DNA from: an uncultured Clostridia bacterium
Lineage (GTDB): Bacteria; Bacillota; Clostridia; TANB77; CAG-508
Assembly (NCBI GenBank): GCA_934119935.1
Contig: CAKOSX010000001.1
Location: 332,299-396,298, forward strand
Direction of reading: 5' to 3'
Length of the DNA stretch: 64,000 nt
Shown here piece after piece: positions 3,641-54,130 of this stretch (positions are counted from its first letter, which is position 1; every line of letters begins with the position of its first letter). The notes under the pieces were generated by a model, which saw nothing but the letters and a program-made list of their open reading frames with translations, searched no databases and had not been told where the DNA came from. The translations under genes were made by a program, and so were the position numbers.

Positions 3641-3720
3641 TTGTACAGCTCGTGTACAAACCGGTACAAAACGGGGACGGAGAAAAAAATGTACAGTTTG
3701 GGGACGAATAATGTCCCCTA
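3641..3720. repeat. GGGGACGGAG / TGTACA dispersed repeat unit plus GGGGAC-N7-GTCCCC hairpin
   Basis: gtacaaaccggtacaaaacGGGGACGGAGaaaaaaaTGTACAgtttGGGGACgaataatGTCCCC; same unit recurs at 19.5k, 23.9k, 43.5k, 51.7k, 53.9k. Confidence 0.7.
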
Positions 3721-5028: not shown

Positions 5029-5676
5029 ATGAACAACCACAGAAAAAACCATTCATATAGAATAAAAAACATAATTTTAAATTATATAAAAGAAAATATA
5101 AAAACATATTTAATTCTACTTATAATATTTTTTATAGGGTTAATACTTGGGGTGATATTCGTCGATAATGCGAGTGAACCCCAAGCAAATCAAATAAGCA
5201 GTTACATAAATAACTTTATAAACTCTATAAAAGAAAATTATCAAATTTCAACAAAAGATTTATTAAAAGAAACAGTAATAAACAATGTAAGCATTGCAGT
5301 AATTTTATGGTTTTTAGGTTCTACAGTTATAGGATTTCCACTGATATATGTAGTTATATGTTACAAAGGATATTGCATAGGGTATACGATATCATCGGTA
5401 ATAGCAACAATAGGAACAGCCAAAGGCATAGTCTTTATACTAGCTACAATGCTATTGCAAAACATAATATACATTCCAGTCATACTGACGTTAGGCGTAA
5501 GCGGAGTAAAACTATATAGGCTTATAATGGAAGACAGAAGAAGAGAAAATATAAAAATACAAATTGCAAAACACACTATATTTTCAATCTTAATGTTAAT
5601 TCTGTTAATAATTTCCGCTTTGATAGAAACATATATTTCGGGGAACTTACTAGAAGTGGTGATTAAATACTGCTAA
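5029..5676 (+). CDS. SpoIIM-like polytopic membrane protein
   Basis: 215 aa, about 5 TM segments, size and position immediately upstream of xerD as in many Clostridia. Confidence 0.45.
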   Translation: MNNHRKNHSYRIKNIILNYIKENIKTYLILLIIFFIGLILGVIFVDNASEPQANQISSYINNFINSIKENYQISTKDLLKETVINNVSIAVILWFLGSTVIGFPLIYVVICYKGYCIGYTISSVIATIGTAKGIVFILATMLLQNIIYIPVILTLGVSGVKLYRLIMEDRRRENIKIQIAKHTIFSILMLILLIISALIETYISGNLLEVVIKYC

Positions 5677-5797: not shown

Positions 5798-6679
5798 ATG
5801 GAAAAACAAGTTAAACTTTTTTTAGATTTTCTTAAAGATGATAAAAAATTATCAGACAATACACTTCAATCATACAGAAGAGATATAGAGCAATATGAAA
5901 AATACGTTTCAGAAAATAAAATAAATTATCTAAAAGCAACTGAAGAGACAATACTAGAATATATGGAATATTTAAGAGAAGAAAACAAAAAAGAGTCGAC
6001 CATTTCAAGAAGTTTAGCATCAATAAGATCTTTTTATCAATATTTAATTCGTATAAAAAAGATAAAAAAAGATCCAACGATGACAATAGAATCACCAAAA
6101 ATAAATAAAAGAACACCAAACATATTAACATCAAAGGAAGTTGAATTATTATTAGATCAACCTAAGGATGTTGATTTAAAAGGAACAAGAGATAAGGCAA
6201 TGCTTGAATTTGCATATGCAACAGGCATGAGAGTAACAGAAATGATATCGTTAAATATAGATGATGTAAGATTAGATGAAGGATATGTTGTATGCAGAGG
6301 CAGAACAAAATCTAGAAACATTCCTTTAGGTTCAATGTCATTAAAAGCATTAAAAGAATATATTGATGATGCAAGACCATATTTAATAAGAGACGAAGAA
6401 GAAGATGCTTTATTTGTCAATGTTAATGGAACAAGATTAACAAGACAAGGATTCTGGAAAATAGTAAAATACTATAAAGAACAAGCACACATAGAAAAAG
6501 ACATAACACCACACGTATTAAGACACTCTTTTGCAACACATTTATTACAAAATGGTGCTGACTTAAAAGCAATACAAACAATGCTTGGACACTCTGACAT
6601 ATCTTCAACACAAGTATACATGCAATTCCAAGATCCTGGAATAAAAAACGAATATAAAAAAGCTCATCCAAGAGCATAA
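5798..6679 (+). CDS. xerD: Tyrosine site-specific recombinase XerD/XerC family
   Basis: 293 aa; N-terminal SAM-like domain (LSDNTLQSYRRDIEQY); catalytic R..HVLRHSFATHLL..GHSDISSTQVY. Confidence 0.8.
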   Translation: MEKQVKLFLDFLKDDKKLSDNTLQSYRRDIEQYEKYVSENKINYLKATEETILEYMEYLREENKKESTISRSLASIRSFYQYLIRIKKIKKDPTMTIESPKINKRTPNILTSKEVELLLDQPKDVDLKGTRDKAMLEFAYATGMRVTEMISLNIDDVRLDEGYVVCRGRTKSRNIPLGSMSLKALKEYIDDARPYLIRDEEEDALFVNVNGTRLTRQGFWKIVKYYKEQAHIEKDITPHVLRHSFATHLLQNGADLKAIQTMLGHSDISSTQVYMQFQDPGIKNEYKKAHPRA

Positions 6680-23839: not shown

Positions 23840-24060
23840 AAAATAGTCAAACCAAAGGTGGCGAAAATAGAGTACAATTTTTCTCTTTCCACACAATATA
23901 CTTAAGGTGGCGAAAATAGAGTACGTTTTTTCCTCCGTCCCCAAAATGCAAAAATGCACTGTACATTTTTTCCTCCGTCCCCAAAATGAAGTCCCCAAAA
24001 TGAACGAACGAAATGAACGAGATGAACGAAATGTACGAAATACAAAATGGTACTTGATTT
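23840..24060. repeat. Repeat cluster: aaggtggcgaaaatagagtac x2, inverted GGGGACGGAG units x2, (a)tgaacga x3
   Basis: Direct reading of sequence. Confidence 0.75.
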
Positions 24061-24317: not shown

Positions 24318-27050
24318 ATGGAAAAAGAAAATTGGTTTAACAAATCGGTTGAAGAAACTACCAAAAAGCTTAACACGAATAATACGTTAGGCTTGACTGC
24401 AGAAGAGGTGGAAAAGAGAAAACAAAAATATGGATTAAATGAGCTGGAAAAAGGCAAGAAAACGCCATTAATTGTCAAGTTTTTAGAGCAATTTAAAGAT
24501 TTTATGATAATTGTTTTAATTATTGCAGCCGTTGTTTCAGGTATTGTAGGGCACATTAATGGAGAAGGCATAACAGATTCAATAATCATAATGGTTGTTG
24601 TAATTGTTAATGCAATAATCGGTGTGGCTCAAGAAGATAAAGCGGAAAAATCACTCGAGGCACTTAAAAAATTAAGTAGTTATTCTGCCAAAGTAATAAG
24701 AAATGGGAAAATAACAGTTGTGCCATCAAAGGAATTGGTTCCAGGAGATGTAGTTGTACTAGAAACAGGCGATTATGTTCCAGCTGATATGAGAATAACA
24801 GAAGCTGTAAATTTAAGGGCTCAAGAGACATCATTAACTGGAGAATCTGTACCAGTTGATAAATATGTAACTACAATAAGTAGCGAAGATGTTGGAATTG
24901 GAGATAGAACCAACATGGTATTTTCTTCTAGCTTGATTACGTACGGTAGAGGTCAAGGAATTGTTGTTGAAACTGGAATGAATACAGAAGTTGGAAAGAT
25001 TGCTGGAATTTTAAATAATACAGAAAAATCTGACACACCTTTACAACGCAGATTAAACAAGTTAGGAAAGACTCTTGGAATTGCTTCGCTTGCAATTTGT
25101 GTGGTAATTTTTATTATTGGATTGTTACAAGGAAAAGAACCACTAGATATGTTTATGACGGCTGTAAGCTTAGCTGTTGCAGTAATTCCAGAAGGACTTG
25201 CAGCAATTTCTACAATAGTTTTAGCAATTGGTGTTCAAAGAATGGTAAAGAAAAATGCAATAGTAAAGAAATTACCAGCTGTTGAAACGCTTGGAAGTGC
25301 TACTGTTATATGTTCTGATAAAACAGGAACTCTTACACAAAATAAGATGACTGTACAAAAATTATTTTATAATAACAGAATAATAGACATCGATAAAGTA
25401 GATACTAATAAAGAAAATGAAGAGCTTGGAAGACTTGTTTATATTTCGATGCTATGTAATGATACAAAAATAGGAGAAAACAAGCAATTAACAGGAGACC
25501 CAACAGAGACAGCTCTTATTGATATGGGATTTAAATTGGATTTTACTCCAGCTGTGTTTGATCAAATGCCAAGAGTTGAAGAAGTTCCATTTGATTCAGA
25601 CAGAAAATTGATGACAACGGTTCATAAAGTAAATGACAATCAATACATGGTTTACACAAAAGGCGGAGTTGATGAATTACTAGCAAGATGTAGCAAATAT
25701 CAAATTAATAATGAGGTTAAAGAAAATCTTGAAGAATACAAGAAAACAATAGAAGATTTCAACGACCAAATGGCTGAAAATGCTTTAAGAGTTCTTGCAA
25801 TGGCGTATAAACAAATAGACCACATGCCATCAAAAGAAGAAATGGAAACAGTCGAGAAAGACCTAATTTATATAGGTATGGTAGGAATGATTGATCCTCC
25901 AAGAGAAGAAGCAAAGGTCGCTGTTGCAAAGTGTAAATCGGCAGGAATAAAAACAGTAATGATAACAGGAGACCATAAGGTGACTGCTGTTGCAATAGCA
26001 AAAGAACTTGGAATTTTAGAAGACGGCGAAGATGCTATAACAGGAAGCCAACTTGAAGCAATGTCGCAAGAAGAATTAATTCAAAGAGTAGAAAATATAA
26101 GAGTGTATGCGAGAGTTTCTCCAGAACATAAAGTGCGTATAGTAAAGGCATGGCAGGCACATGGAGAAATAGTTGCGATGACTGGGGACGGAGTAAATGA
26201 TGCACCAGCCCTAAAAACAGCAGATATAGGTTGTGCAATGGGAATTGTAGGAACAGATGTTGCTAAAGAAGCAGCAGACGTAATTTTAACAGATGACAAC
26301 TTTGCAACAGTTGTTTCAGCAGTTGAAGAAGGCAGACGTATTTATGACAACATAATAAAGGCAATACAGTTCTTATTATCTAGCAACGTCGGAGAGGTAA
26401 TAGTATTGTTCTTAGCAATCTTACTAACACCATTCTTAGCAACAAAATTTGGAATTCCAATTGGATTAATAGAACCATTACTACCAATACACATATTATG
26501 GATAAACTTAGTAACGGATTCATTACCAGCTTTAGCACTTGCATTTGACCCAGCAAACAAAGATGTAATGAAGAGAAAACCAGTAAAAGCAAATTCTGGA
26601 ATATTCACAAAAGGTATGACATGGCGCATAATCTACCAAGGAATAATGATAGGACTTTTATCACTTGCTGCATTCGTAATTGGAATTTCTACTCCAAATC
26701 CACCAGTAATAGAAGGACTAACACCAGAACAAGTAAGAGTTGAAATTGGTCAGACAATGACATTTATTGTTCTAGCATTTTCTGAATTGATTCATGTATT
26801 TAATATAAGAAACAACAAAGAGTCAATATTCAAAACAGGAATAGGTGGAAACAAGCAATTATTCTGGGCTATTGGAGCATCTGCAATGCTTATGCTAGTA
26901 ATACTTGCAATTCCAGCTTTAAGAACAATATTCAGTATTCCGGTACTTCCAATGGATAGAATAGTTGAAACAATAGCATTAGTAATTGCACCAGTTGTAA
27001 TAGTCGAAATATTCAAATTACTAAAAATAAATACTTCTAAGGATGAATAA
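24318..27050 (+). CDS. Calcium-translocating P-type ATPase (PMCA/SERCA-type, P2A)
   Basis: 910 aa; DKTGTLT phosphorylation site, TGDGVNDAPALK, 10 TM topology. Confidence 0.9.
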   Translation: MEKENWFNKSVEETTKKLNTNNTLGLTAEEVEKRKQKYGLNELEKGKKTPLIVKFLEQFKDFMIIVLIIAAVVSGIVGHINGEGITDSIIIMVVVIVNAIIGVAQEDKAEKSLEALKKLSSYSAKVIRNGKITVVPSKELVPGDVVVLETGDYVPADMRITEAVNLRAQETSLTGESVPVDKYVTTISSEDVGIGDRTNMVFSSSLITYGRGQGIVVETGMNTEVGKIAGILNNTEKSDTPLQRRLNKLGKTLGIASLAICVVIFIIGLLQGKEPLDMFMTAVSLAVAVIPEGLAAISTIVLAIGVQRMVKKNAIVKKLPAVETLGSATVICSDKTGTLTQNKMTVQKLFYNNRIIDIDKVDTNKENEELGRLVYISMLCNDTKIGENKQLTGDPTETALIDMGFKLDFTPAVFDQMPRVEEVPFDSDRKLMTTVHKVNDNQYMVYTKGGVDELLARCSKYQINNEVKENLEEYKKTIEDFNDQMAENALRVLAMAYKQIDHMPSKEEMETVEKDLIYIGMVGMIDPPREEAKVAVAKCKSAGIKTVMITGDHKVTAVAIAKELGILEDGEDAITGSQLEAMSQEELIQRVENIRVYARVSPEHKVRIVKAWQAHGEIVAMTGDGVNDAPALKTADIGCAMGIVGTDVAKEAADVILTDDNFATVVSAVEEGRRIYDNIIKAIQFLLSSNVGEVIVLFLAILLTPFLATKFGIPIGLIEPLLPIHILWINLVTDSLPALALAFDPANKDVMKRKPVKANSGIFTKGMTWRIIYQGIMIGLLSLAAFVIGISTPNPPVIEGLTPEQVRVEIGQTMTFIVLAFSELIHVFNIRNNKESIFKTGIGGNKQLFWAIGASAMLMLVILAIPALRTIFSIPVLPMDRIVETIALVIAPVVIVEIFKLLKINTSKDE

Positions 27051-27077
27051 ATTAATCAATTAATTAAGCAATTAAGC

Positions 27078-27184
27078 AATAATTTATATTTTTTAAAACG
27101 AGACTGGAAGTGCGCCTTTTGAGGGGTCCGTTAGGAGCCCCGACCAAGCACGACATGTTGAGGCTTTATAAAAATATAAATTAT
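27078..27184 (+). repeat. Palindromic element with conserved about 66-nt GC-rich core (copy A, + orientation)
   Basis: aataatttatatttttt-[aaaacgagactggaagtgcgccttttgaggggtccgttaggagccccgaccaagcacgacatgttgaggctttataa]-aaaatataaattatt. Confidence 0.7.
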
Positions 27185-27324
27185 TGCTATTTGGTTTTAA
27201 CCTATTAGAAAAGTATGACGGATTCCTTAGTAAATTATTGCATACAAAATTTATAATAAAAATTGTAGAATATTGTAAATAAAAGTTGCATATGATAGAA
27301 TAAGAAAAAAATAAGAGGTAGAAA

Positions 27325-49781: not shown

Positions 49782-51713
49782 ATGTACGATGAAAAGAAAT
49801 TAGCGAAGGCTAAAGATATATTAAAGAAAAACAATCAAGAGAAAATTTTGATGTTTTTGAATAAGCTGGACGACGATAAGAAGGAAAGCTTGGCAGAACA
49901 GATTCTGAATTTGGATTTTGAACAGTTGAATAGATTGTATGCAGAAACAAAGACAGAGCCAGAAATATTGGAAAAGAAAATTGAACATACGAAATATGTC
50001 GATGAATATAAAATATCAGAAGAGATAAGAGAAAAGTATACAAAATTAGGTGAAAATGTAATAAAAAATAATCAGTATGCTGTTGTTACAATGGCAGGAG
50101 GTCAGGGCACAAGACTTGGACACAAAGGTCCAAAGGGAACATTTTTGCTAGATGTAATTCCAGAGCCTAAATATTTGTTCCAAATATTGGCCGAAAATTT
50201 GGAGAAAGCAAACAGAAAATATGGTGTTACATTACCTTGGTTTGTAATGACAAGCACAGAGAACAATGAAGAAACAGTAAAATTCTTTAAAGAGCACAAT
50301 TACTTTGGATATCCAGAGGAAAGCATTGAATTTTTTGAACAGGGAAATTTACCATTGTTATCTTTCGATGGAAGTTTAATATTGGATAAAGATTGTTCTA
50401 TTAAAGAAGCTGCAGATGGCAATGGTTGCATATATGCTGCCATGGCAAAGGCTGGAGTAATTGAAAAAATGAAGAAAATGGGCATAAAGTGGATCTTTAT
50501 AGGCTCAGTTGATAATGCTTTGTTAAATATGGTAGATCCAATTTTAGTTGGATTAACAATAGATCAGAAACACGAAATCGCATCAAAATCAGTTGCTAAG
50601 GCAAATCCACATGAAAGAGTTGGAGTATTTTGCAAAATTAATTCTGTTCCATCAGTTATAGAGTACAGCGAGTTGCCAGAAAAAATGGCAGAGGAGACCG
50701 ATAAGGATGGAGAGCTATTGTATGGAGAAGCACACATCATGTGCAACTTATTTAGCATAGATGCACTAGAAAAAGTATCAAAAGTAAAATTGCCATACCA
50801 TGTTGCAGTAAAAAAATCTGGATATATGGACGAAAATCTTGAATTTGTTGAGGCGGGAGAACCAAATGCATATAAATTTGAAGCTTTTATATTCGATGCT
50901 TTCAACTTTTTCGACGACATATCAATATTGAGAGGAAAAAGAGAATTCGATTTTGCACCAGTAAAAAATAAGGCTGGAAACGACAGTCCAGACACTGCAA
51001 GGGCATTGTACAATAATCTGGCAAGATGCAAGATAGAAAACCTATACAATTTGGATGAAACAATAGCAAAAGAATTGTTGGCAAAATATACATATCCATG
51101 GGAAGTGCTACCACACATAAGTGACTTTATCTTAGAGCTTGGAGAAAAACTTCCAAAAGACGAATACAAAAAAATTGGCGACGATGTATGGATTCATAAA
51201 TCAGCTACAGTATTTGAAACAGCATATATCCATGGACCAGCAATAATTTGCAAAGATGCTGAAATAAGACATTGCGCATTCATACGTGGAAAAGCGATAG
51301 TAGGAGAAGGCGCCGTTGTTGGAAACTCAACAGAGCTAAAAAATGTAATATTATTCAACAAAGTACAAGTGCCACATTACAACTACGTTGGAGACTCAAT
51401 ACTTGGATACAAAGCACACATGGGAGCAGGTTCAATCACGTCAAACGTAAAATCAGACAAAAAACTCGTAAAAATAAAATGTGGGATAAAACAAGAAGCT
51501 GAACAAGAGACAGAGCAAATAGAAACAGGATTAAAGAAAATTGGAGCAATGCTTGGCGACAACGTAGAAGTAGGATGCGGAAGCGTACTAAATCCTGGCA
51601 CAATAATAGGAAAAAACACAAACATATATCCTTTGTCATCAGTAAGAGGAGTAGTTCCTGCAAACAGCATATACAAAAGCAAAACAGGAACAGAAATAGT
51701 AGAAAAGAAATAA
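49782..51713 (+). CDS. Fusion of eukaryotic-type UDP-sugar pyrophosphorylase (UDPGP/UAP1-like) with C-terminal left-handed beta-helix (hexapeptide) domain
   Basis: VVTMAGGQGTRLGHKGPKGTF UDPGP signature; C-terminal 200 aa of imperfect hexapeptide repeats (IHGPAIICKDAEIRHCAFIRGKAIVGEGAVVGNST). Confidence 0.7.
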   Translation: MYDEKKLAKAKDILKKNNQEKILMFLNKLDDDKKESLAEQILNLDFEQLNRLYAETKTEPEILEKKIEHTKYVDEYKISEEIREKYTKLGENVIKNNQYAVVTMAGGQGTRLGHKGPKGTFLLDVIPEPKYLFQILAENLEKANRKYGVTLPWFVMTSTENNEETVKFFKEHNYFGYPEESIEFFEQGNLPLLSFDGSLILDKDCSIKEAADGNGCIYAAMAKAGVIEKMKKMGIKWIFIGSVDNALLNMVDPILVGLTIDQKHEIASKSVAKANPHERVGVFCKINSVPSVIEYSELPEKMAEETDKDGELLYGEAHIMCNLFSIDALEKVSKVKLPYHVAVKKSGYMDENLEFVEAGEPNAYKFEAFIFDAFNFFDDISILRGKREFDFAPVKNKAGNDSPDTARALYNNLARCKIENLYNLDETIAKELLAKYTYPWEVLPHISDFILELGEKLPKDEYKKIGDDVWIHKSATVFETAYIHGPAIICKDAEIRHCAFIRGKAIVGEGAVVGNSTELKNVILFNKVQVPHYNYVGDSILGYKAHMGAGSITSNVKSDKKLVKIKCGIKQEAEQETEQIETGLKKIGAMLGDNVEVGCGSVLNPGTIIGKNTNIYPLSSVRGVVPANSIYKSKTGTEIVEKK

Positions 51714-52003
51714 GTACAAACCTGTACAAACCGGGGACGGAGCAGAAAATGTACACTCGGAAAATGTTAAATGTACAAACCGGGGACGGAGAAAAAATTG
51801 TACACATAGAATTTATTAAATAAAAAGTACTAATTCATATTTTTAAAGCAAAAACGGAAGCTCGCCTTTTGAGGAGTCCAAAGGAGCTCTGACCAAGAGC
51901 AACGTGTTGTGGCTTTATAAAATATGAATTAGTACTTAAATTTTAAGCAAAATGTACATTTTTTTCTCCGTCCCCGGTTTGTACCGGTTTGTACAGATTT
52001 GTA
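51714..52003. repeat. Composite about 290-bp repeat: 2 direct GGGGACGGAG/TGTACA units, 111-bp palindromic core element (+ orientation), 1 inverted unit
   Basis: Core 51826..51936 flanked by perfect 24-bp arms aagtactaattcatatttt; outer arms ccGGGGACGGAG x2 left, CTCCGTCCCC right. Confidence 0.8.
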
Positions 52004-53834: not shown

Positions 53835-54130
53835 TACAAACCGGTACAATTCGGTACAATTTGGGGACGGAGCTAAAAATGTACAATTGGAAAATATTAA
53901 ATGTACAAACTGGGGACGGAGCTAAAAATGTACATTAAAAAACTGTAAATACAAAAGTACTAAGTCATTTCTTATAAAGCTACGACACGTCGTTCTTGGT
54001 CGGAGCTCTTTCGGGCTCATCAAGAAGCGAACTTCCGTTCTTACTTTATAAGAAATGACTTAGTACTTAAATTTTTGAAAAAATGTACAATTTTTTCTCC
54101 GTCCCCGAATTGTACGCCGAATTGTACAAA
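53835..54130. repeat. Composite about 295-bp repeat, second copy, core element inverted relative to copy at 51.7k
   Basis: Core 53956..54066 with perfect 24-bp arms agtactaagtcatttcttataaag; inner 66 nt is reverse complement of the 51.8k core; outer arms same polarity as first copy. Confidence 0.8.

Follow-up and report, generated by a model that had tools for sequence, protein, structure and literature searches.

REP and BIME elements, and the REPINs that go with RAYT, are palindromes at the 3' ends of genes that occur in either orientation, are recognized as folded single strands, and are maintained within the genome; REPs are ~35 bp long and GC-rich, with a conserved stem. REPs are listed among the small repeats in PMC3184786, and copies of the ERIC type are reported to have terminal inverted repeats and a flanking TA (PMC3184786). 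In plastid DNA, hairpin-bounded loops flip repeatedly and spontaneously without a dedicated enzyme (PMC6824564). Here, we describe a family of intergenic hairpin elements, three copies of which (c1, c2, and c3) lie in a 64,000-nt stretch of DNA from an uncultured Clostridia bacterium (GenBank assembly GCA_934119935.1, contig CAKOSX010000001.1, positions 332,299–396,298; hereafter, the window; GC content 32%). An earlier reading of the letters alone (the sequence-only reading) had picked out these copies as a covarying structure and proposed that they could be terminators, stabilizers, or small RNAs. On balance, we favor the view that they belong to a new dispersed palindromic family, a terminator hairpin similar to SPRITE, ERIC, and bcr1 elements that spreads at the DNA level, rather than to an ordinary regulatory RNA.

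Results

Three Copies of a Long Hairpin in the Window

The core pattern GGAAGNNCGCYTYTTGAKGRGYCC matches the window three times, against 0.00 matches expected from 100 shuffles, and a family-derived covariance model run over the whole window finds exactly c1, c2, and c3 (E = 1e-18 to 1e-22), bearing out the three copies with a common core that the sequence-only reading had placed at these sites. All three share a 48-nt core and a semi-conserved inner stem, enclosed by AT-rich arms of 19–25 bp. Folded as whole elements, they reach −41 to −50 kcal/mol (z = −7 to −10); the stability of the core folded alone is not unusual (z = +0.4 to −1.9). Minimum-free-energy folding was not used to set the ends of the elements; AT-rich flanks pair spuriously.

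Copy c1 (27,072–27,189, with the core reading on the plus strand; −44 kcal/mol, z = −6.9; covariance model score 103 bits, E = 1.5e-22) is located between the stop codon of a Ca-ATPase gene (27,050) and the conserved promoter-like site of a deacetylase gene (27,273–27,301). Its left arm (27,075–27,098, inverted repeat I5) and its right arm (27,165–27,188, followed by the T-rich ATTTGGTTTT) match over 24 nt at 92%, including 19 nt that are perfect; this perfect segment, AGCAATAATTTATATTTTT, is identical in the orthologs L007, L014, L015, and L101 (related sequences are cited here by L number). The conserved core spans 27,106–27,154, with helix P2 formed between 27,110–27,113 and 27,148–27,151, hairpin P3 at 27,123–27,141, and two conserved internal loops, GAA/GA and GCCUUUUGA/GACCAA. 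The copy had been put 43 nt after the ATPase stop, but its arm in fact starts 24 nt and its core 55 nt past that codon.

Copy c2 (51,826–51,937, plus strand; core 51,856–51,903; 98 bits) has arms with 19 perfect nucleotides (28 nt at 86%), and c3 (53,955–54,068; 87 bits) has arms of 25 nt that match at 100% (53,955–53,979 and 54,044–54,068). The core of c3 (53,989–54,036) reads on the minus strand, a correction to the strand assigned to it before.

A Conserved, Covarying Tip on Variable Arms

In alignments of 12 and then 32 non-redundant copies (A2, A3, and A4), the ~115-bp element is one long hairpin, within a gained or lost unit of ~145–150 bp. Outermost are distal arms of ~12–14 bp, variable in sequence and complementary within each copy; inside them comes the semi-conserved inner stem, TATTTTTTAAAAcgaaac/guugaggCUUUAUAAAAAUA, and then the tip, 48 nt of GC-rich sequence forming three short helices with strictly conserved unpaired bases between them. 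The first helix, P1, is closed by an invariant G-C pair and has a conserved bulged U; it is followed inward by the internal loop GAA/GA, helix P2 (GNNC/GNNC), the internal loop GCCUUUUGA/GACCAA, and P3, which has the form GGAGU(CC)-loop-(GG)AGCUCC. RNAalifold predicts this fold unaided. Standard pairs fill 89.4% of the pair cells, compared with 80.7% after shuffling (0 of 500 shuffles reach the observed value) and 33%–48% when the partners are slid against each other.

The compensatory change on which the sequence-only reading had built its case, GGAGU/GCUCU in c2 versus GGGGU/GCCCC in c1, is correct and extends over the 32 copies, and covariation of the inner stems is stronger than was claimed: a second covarying helix, GNNC/GNNC (GUGC/GCAC, GCUC/GAGC, and GUUC/GAAC), had been overlooked. 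This helix, P2, is paired in 32 of 32 copies and occurs in three pair combinations (CG in 19 and UA in 13 copies at one position; UA in 23 and GC in 9 at the other). Four further pairs alternate repeatedly between Watson-Crick types, among them 41/91 (UA 16, CG 15), 38/95 (AU 23, GC 7, GU 2), and 61/75 (AU 26, GC 6); pair 59/77 is GC in 29 copies and GU in 2. Each pair switch recurs within more than one P2 subfamily and therefore reflects repeated events or shuffled modules, not a single inherited change. In three sequences (L032, L077, and L013b), P3 as a whole is swapped for an unrelated hairpin, GGGCUAAAUAGCCC.

Covariation is Watson-Crick to Watson-Crick throughout. There is no G-U strand bias, either in the arms (14 G-U-type mismatches on the plus strand versus 17 on the minus strand) or in P1–P3 (9 versus 6, excluding one conserved U able to pair with A or G). 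Judged from sequence, then, no transcribed strand is singled out, and all that can be drawn from the covariation is that a single-stranded fold of some kind, in RNA or DNA, is important or gets copied.

The arms also covary, as proposed; those of the three copies are nonetheless related, being diverged versions of one ancestral arm with the consensus ..AAG.AATAATTTATATTTTTTAAAA, and their inner part, TATTTTT..AAAAATA, is conserved across copies.

These data bear on the proposal that the element is a functional structured RNA, with the tip as a protein- or ligand-binding module presented on a long stem and acting as a stabilizer in the 3' untranslated region (UTR), as a processing signal, or as a small RNA. 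We regard this as unlikely, but it keeps some weight because of the invariant unpaired bases, the low divergence of intact copies (core and inner stem of intact orthologs differ less than the flanks), and two possible tandem G-A/A-G mismatches beside the helices that the alignment suggests on the plus strand only (GGAAG/CGAC and UGA-G/C-GAC); the strong Watson-Crick covariation in three helices and the location of the element in transcribed 3' regions are likewise what an RNA would predict. The lack of a G-U excess on either strand speaks against it, as does the outcome of an Rfam search, which the sequence-only reading had suggested and which gave no matching family. Rfam 15 applied to the whole window at the gathering threshold identifies 4 tRNAs only, and at E ≤ 10 around all three copies it returns only chance microRNA and small-RNA matches (17–19 bits, versus gathering scores of 55–195). 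By-eye resemblances to the K-turn, SRP domain IV, and Y-RNA were dropped; the pairing registers do not fit, and the Rfam models gave no match.

A Family in Low-GC Gut Clostridia

Scanning for further copies beyond the window, also suggested by the sequence-only reading, showed that c1–c3 are part of a larger family. A scan of one genome per species gave 9 genuine copies, all in three metagenome-assembled genomes titled "uncultured Clostridia bacterium" from the human gut (GC 28%–33%), plus two chance matches in high-GC genomes, and a metagenome scan gave 87 stretches, of which the descriptively named records are human-gut assemblies. Combined, the scans yield 98 elements with 31 distinct cores and 59 distinct full sequences, at about two dozen loci when grouped by their flanks. 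It should be noted that the copies were recovered by core-pattern scans and that figures for core conservation are inflated by this. When the covariance model was run on 716 kb of flanking DNA, just 2 further, diverged copies were found, which makes a modest number of copies per genome probable. Searches of viral contigs, plasmid records, and phage records gave no similar sequence, and a phage or plasmid origin was rejected on this ground. As far as sampled, the family is limited to a clade of low-GC uncultured human-gut Clostridia.

The Tip Is Flipped between Close Relatives

The orientation of the core relative to the flanking genes is flipped in at least six orthologous or paralogous comparisons. 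At the c1 locus, the orthologs L007 (flanks 91% identical) and L014, L015, L035, and L053 (94%–95% over several kilobases) have identical arms and a 70-nt interior that is exactly reverse-complemented with respect to the window; 12 orthologs have one orientation and the window alone has the other, and the tip is antisense to the ATPase mRNA in 12 of the 13 genomes. Further flips separate L005/L041 from L076, L004 from L082, L027 from L064/L083, and the L012 group from the L040 group, as well as c2 from its paralog c3 and the window's c3 from that of L107; the c2 orthologs in L036 and L107 are oriented as in the window. Where the flanking genes are in tandem, three loci have the GGAAG strand sense to the upstream gene and three have it antisense. 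The cores stay intact after a flip, with 0 differences between L004 and L082 and between L027 and L083, and 0–1 when L012/L040 is included. At 27,062–27,077, an 8-nt tandem duplication, AATTAAGC AATTAAGC, abuts the left arm of c1; it is absent in every ortholog with the opposite core orientation and may be a footprint of the flip event.

The simplest cause of the flips would be arm-to-arm recombination or template switching, by analogy with the plastid loops, and arm-to-arm gene conversion might likewise be the reason why the arms stay perfect while drifting in sequence.

For a functional RNA, the flips are hard to accommodate: the tip is inverted at many loci with its conservation kept, its orientation to the upstream gene is evenly split, it is antisense at the c1 locus in all genomes but one, and the flipped 70 nt has no room for a promoter, none being found inside it. 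In addition, the copies found without the help of the core pattern (L101, L049, L013b, and the L107 orthologs of c2 and c3) all have altered or eroded cores. Of the original proposal, the genuine covarying family stands; that the covariation marks a strand-specific functional RNA (a small RNA or a cis-element of the upstream mRNA) is not supported, given the flips of the core between close relatives at several loci, the 3:3 orientation, the unbiased G-U counts, and the orthologs with eroded cores on intact arms. The tip is probably not a strand-specific regulator of the neighboring gene.

The flips also raise the question of an inverton, in which a site-specific invertase would turn the tip between the arms and so switch an orientation-dependent signal on or off. 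An exact segment between perfect inverted repeats is indeed flipped between relatives at 94%–96% identity, and the inner part of the arms is conserved across copies. The two orientations of the segment were compared between genomes, however, and with 12 of 13 c1 assemblies in one orientation the flips look like rare evolutionary events. Known invertons are longer than the ~66–70-bp invertible segment here. The outer arms differ between copies, there is no promoter-like site in the tip, and no invertase or recombinase gene is adjacent to the copies examined; moreover, plastid hairpin loops flip without any enzyme (PMC6824564). With a 12:1 ratio of orientations at the c1 locus, outer arms that vary, and neither a promoter in the tip nor an invertase next to these copies, a true phase-variable switch is unlikely, and we give the inverton very little credence.

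The Arms Occupy the Position of a Terminator

At most loci, the arms begin 3–45 nt past a stop codon. A T-run follows the right arm in 19 of 32 copies, versus 21% of control windows, and an A-run precedes the left arm in 15 of 32, versus 23% of controls. The sequence-only reading had placed all copies directly 3' of genes; the c2 and c3 hairpins are an estimated 69–123 nt from the nearest stop codons, and between lies a second repeat (GGGGACGGAG-A6-TGTACA), to which we return below.

For the c1 locus, comparison was made with ATPase orthologs at 80%–88% protein identity. In six lineages without the element (L099, L100, L103, L104, L105, and L102/L106), a plain hairpin resembling a terminator takes its place, with stems of ~6–13 bp (12–13 bp and AT-rich in L100, L103, and L104), and the other long AT-rich hairpins of the window are of the same style as the arms. 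The post-ATPase hairpins (L099, 12,736–12,841; L100, 10,566–10,700; L103, 5,429–5,516; L104, 7,006–7,159; also L105 and L102/L106) have a different stem sequence each time; such differing hairpins after the same gene suggest very fast terminator turnover in the clade. In L101 (3,536–3,628), both distal arms of c1 are unchanged, whereas 20 of the 93 central positions are substituted (44 bits versus ~105). The host appears to need the stem, and at least some lineages can dispense with the tip.

The terminator proposal of the sequence-only reading therefore suits the arms, by their position after stop codons, the excess of T-runs, and the plain hairpins that relatives carry in their place. Together with the A- and T-runs beside them, the arms would act as an intrinsic, often bidirectional terminator; their position is what argues for this activity.

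Arms and Core Are Gained or Lost Together

Copies of the same core subfamily at non-homologous loci (no flank similarity even by tblastx) have related arms, as in the groups L001/L013/L048 (GAACAATTT), c2/c3/L017 (AGTACTAATTC), and L075/L060 (GAAATAATTT). Two empty sites are available for comparison with filled ones. At the first, the two flanks of the L005/L041/L076 element run straight into each other in L054, L038, and L086, and the filled allele adds ~145 nt, made up of the arms, the core, and 21 nt more, between copies of C[T/A]AAATAA. The second is the c3 locus in L036 (93%–95% identical to the window), which has between convergent genes only a perfect palindrome, GGGGACGGAG-UAAAAAA-UGUACA-AUUUUUUA-CUCCGUCCCC. 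In the window, a unit of ~149 nt (21 nt, the hairpin, and 16 nt) sits at the TGTACA tip of this palindrome, with TGTACA on both sides, and the layout of c2 matches that of c3, its unit lying within an outer palindrome. As the empty alleles lack arms and core alike, and related arms recur within core subfamilies, the arms belong to the unit.

A third state of the c3 site is found in L107 (96% identical to the window), where the element has the opposite orientation, another core subtype, and three compensated arm differences. Three states at one site among near-conspecifics at 93%–96% identity indicate rapid turnover, by re-insertion or ectopic conversion.

The idea that the arms are pre-existing terminator stems into which just the conserved 92 nt was inserted has the attraction that plain terminators of relatives have 13-bp stems of the same style. 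It was rejected as a general rule because the empty alleles are without arms, non-orthologous copies of a subfamily share arms, and complementarity that extends beyond the arms occurs in no more than 4 of 24 copies; by the same count, nesting within a larger palindrome is no general feature. The arms as an inverted duplication of the target were rejected because the arm sequence is missing from the empty sites.

The sequence-only reading had allowed for the arms being the ends of an insertion sequence or a MITE (miniature inverted-repeat transposable element). Every one of the 98 copies forms a closed hairpin, with none being the terminus of some longer element. As in a classical MITE, close relatives are polymorphic for presence or absence at the L005/L041/L076 site and the c3 site, and both sites carry flanking repeats on both sides (C[T/A]AAATAA and (A)nTGTACA, respectively); the outermost arms, however, differ between copies, and the two gained or lost units have no common terminal motif where a MITE would have conserved terminal inverted repeats.

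A folded single-stranded DNA site for recombination or transposition, with the tip read by a dedicated enzyme (like attC, REP/RAYT, or IS200/IS605 ends) and the arms as passengers that terminate, would explain why the stems conserve structure over sequence, with Watson-Crick-only covariation and no strand bias. The conserved bulged bases (the U after CGAC-N and the A of GGAAG), the presence/absence polymorphisms with short direct repeats at their junctions, the differing core subtypes at one orthologous site, and contigs that join two loci inside the core fit it as well. We nevertheless consider it quite improbable, in that no HUH, tyrosine, or serine recombinase gene stands beside any copy in the neighboring-gene tables read, there is no constant target sequence, cleavage motif, or cassette array, the copy number looks low, and the joined contigs are short, of low coverage, and may be assembly errors.

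Four contigs carry such chimeric elements (L020, 855–946; L023, 1,278–1,370; L071, 5,728–5,820; and L043, 1,233–1,324), in which the left arm comes from one locus and the right arm from a second; P2 of L020 is thus mismatched. The sequences share ~24–35 nt at the junctions, all four contigs are short, and at least two (L020 and L071) have low coverage (3–6x). They are either assembly errors or the products of real recombination between copies.

Returning to a family that spreads at the DNA level, the reading that we favor, several observations weigh against it. No general target duplication is seen over 32 copies (the longest shared flank word averages 5.66 nt, versus 5.59 nt in controls); the unit's true ends, as seen at the two polymorphic sites, lack conserved terminal repeats; and no transposase or recombinase partner was found. 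The insertion polymorphisms are only two, both equally explicable as deletions between the C[T/A]AAATAA or TGTACA direct repeats. At c1, the AT-rich stem and the large loop (66 nt) keep a simple terminator consensus scan from calling anything. Finally, where the core is retained, it and the inner stem have diverged less than the flanks, a possible sign of host-level selection on the tip. Among 15 orthologous pairs, the core differs by 1.9% (a figure biased low by finding copies via the core pattern, outside which the inner stem lies), the inner stem by 4.9%, the distal arms by 12.3%, and the flanks by 13.9%, and the c1 element is 99% identical where its flanks are 94% identical. Selection on the tip in place is unproven because the core figure is biased and the pattern-free copies are all altered or eroded. 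The 3' half of the L107 ortholog of the c2 core (~6,085–6,105) has 7 substitutions in a 21-nt stretch, all of them transitions, in a genome that overall matches the window at 96%; clustered tip substitutions such as those in L107 and L101 might stem from damage to a DNA that spends much time as a single strand, or simply from relaxed selection.

A Second Repeat and the Neighboring Genes

The second repeat consists of a variable 8–10-mer present twice, followed by GGGGACGGAG, an A-rich run of 6–7 nt, and TGTACA. The window has 12 intergenic copies, against 0.33 expected matches (at 3,673, 19,513, 19,579, 51,733, 51,782, 53,863, and 53,912 and, on the minus strand, at 23,933, 23,973, 43,496, 51,966, and 54,097); a 13th match to the GGGGACGGAG pattern, at 26,184, is coding sequence for the TGDGVNDAP motif of the ATPase. 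The repeat is largely specific to the window's species (the window holds 13 matches, compared with 17 across 716 kb of related loci) and has no Rfam match. Solo halves occur in either orientation and also upstream of genes.

Around c2, the outer palindrome is formed by 51,772–51,804 (plus strand; TGTACAAACC-GGGGACGGAG-A6-TTGTACA) and 51,953–51,984 (minus strand), which pair with each other; around c3, it is formed by 53,902–53,934 (plus strand) and its partner, 54,084–54,116 (minus strand). In L036 (~5,480–5,545), the two halves abut at a single TGTACA as a plain, perfect terminator-like hairpin between the convergent genes. Left of c3, an extra GGGGACGGAG half-unit of ~49 nt (53,863–53,911) is present in the window where L036 and L107 have one, and the same doubled arrangement is also present left of c2. 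The GGGGACGGAG repeat was rejected as a part of the hairpin element; it is largely species-specific and accompanies only the c2/c3/L017 subfamily.

The genes neighboring the three copies are housekeeping genes, encoding a P-type Ca-ATPase, a polysaccharide deacetylase, a UDP-sugar pyrophosphorylase, and RecG. The UDP-sugar pyrophosphorylase gene (49,782–51,713) encodes 643 aa, with a C-terminal left-handed beta-helix (hexapeptide) extension, and among its best 120 homologues nearly all are ~416 aa long and lack this extension. Comparison of the c2 locus via homologues of this upstream gene was dropped; the gene is shorter in most relatives (~416 versus 643 aa), and the 3' ends are not comparable.

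Discussion

Taken as a palindromic family that propagates as DNA, the element would spread as a unit by insertion or ectopic conversion, and the tip of another palindromic terminator would be among its landing sites. Once there, the tip may be free to erode while the arms are kept, and arm-to-arm recombination or template switching, on the model of the plastid hairpin loops, could both flip the tip and keep the arms identical. The conserved, covarying tip would most likely be recognized as a folded single strand (DNA or RNA) by a propagating or binding partner.

A more elaborate proposal, which we put forward tentatively and think doubtful, is that the tip is the recognition module of a single-strand-specific enzyme or binding protein and the element a mobile, self-contained terminator cassette. 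Such a cassette would insert at gene ends, the tips of existing terminator hairpins included, and terminate transcription coming from either side, and through recombination between the arms its tip could be displayed on one strand or the other; in a variant of this proposal, the flip would slowly switch an RNA signal located in the 3' UTR.

For motif discovery, the family holds a caution. Clean compensatory covariation, which is usually taken to prove a functional RNA, here coexists with flips, with no G-U strand bias, and with local erosion, and pipelines that score covariation of GC-rich islands in AT-rich intergenic DNA would probably call the family a structured RNA. If the arms truly terminate transcription, the element is one route of terminator replacement in low-GC gut Clostridia. 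The invariant unpaired bases of the tip, in turn, point to a specific putative partner and provide an entry point to mobility or binding in organisms not yet brought into culture.

With respect to known systems, the family shares with SPRITE-, ERIC-, and bcr1-type elements that it is multi-copy, ~100–150 bp long, intergenic, hairpin-forming, found in both orientations, and non-conserved in its distribution among relatives. Among the closest known repeats, one of ~100 bp in a low-GC Gram-positive bacterium is likewise a dispersed, intergenic, terminator-like hairpin downstream of genes; it belongs to a different host clade, whereas the present element has a large conserved, three-helix, GC-rich tip and variable arms. 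ERIC/IRU elements (~127 bp; PMC3184786) are also imperfect intergenic palindromes that are transcribed, often 3' of genes, with possible effects at the RNA level, but the new family has no conserved terminus or general duplication, and the lineages are unrelated. In the Bacillus cereus group, bcr1 (~155 bp; PMC3184786) is a dispersed Firmicute repeat with a non-conserved distribution, a fold kept by compensatory changes, and a structural stability that was lost repeatedly in some copies; it differs in having 5-bp direct repeats at each copy and a cruciform-like fold of two stem-loops, where the new family has a single long hairpin, no consistent duplication, and a flipping tip.

Unlike REPs and REPINs with their RAYT, the element is ~115 bp long, its stem is AT-rich and variable and its tip conserved, and it has no GTAG-type motif; no RAYT or Y1-transposase domain is encoded among the neighboring genes read. 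Compared with integron attC sites, its ends are variable AT-rich arms without GTTRRRY, and the copies are solitary between housekeeping genes of mixed orientation. The small inversions of plastid DNA (PMC6824564) are similar in that a loop bounded by inverted repeats flips repeatedly between close relatives, but those loops are a few neutral bases, and here a conserved, structured segment of 66–70 nt is turned. The HMP-PP (thiS) riboswitch (PMC6478431) has an aptamer embedded in a terminator and thus resembles the element as a structured RNA module nested in a terminator hairpin; that riboswitch is gene-specific, upstream of its gene, and fixed in orientation, whereas the new element has no gene association, is downstream, and is found both ways round. 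Small palindromic intergenic repeats at the ends of Firmicute genes are a known kind of element, but no described family matches this one, and it is set apart by a large conserved structured tip, variable self-complementary arms, repeated flips, and insertion at the tip of another palindromic terminator.

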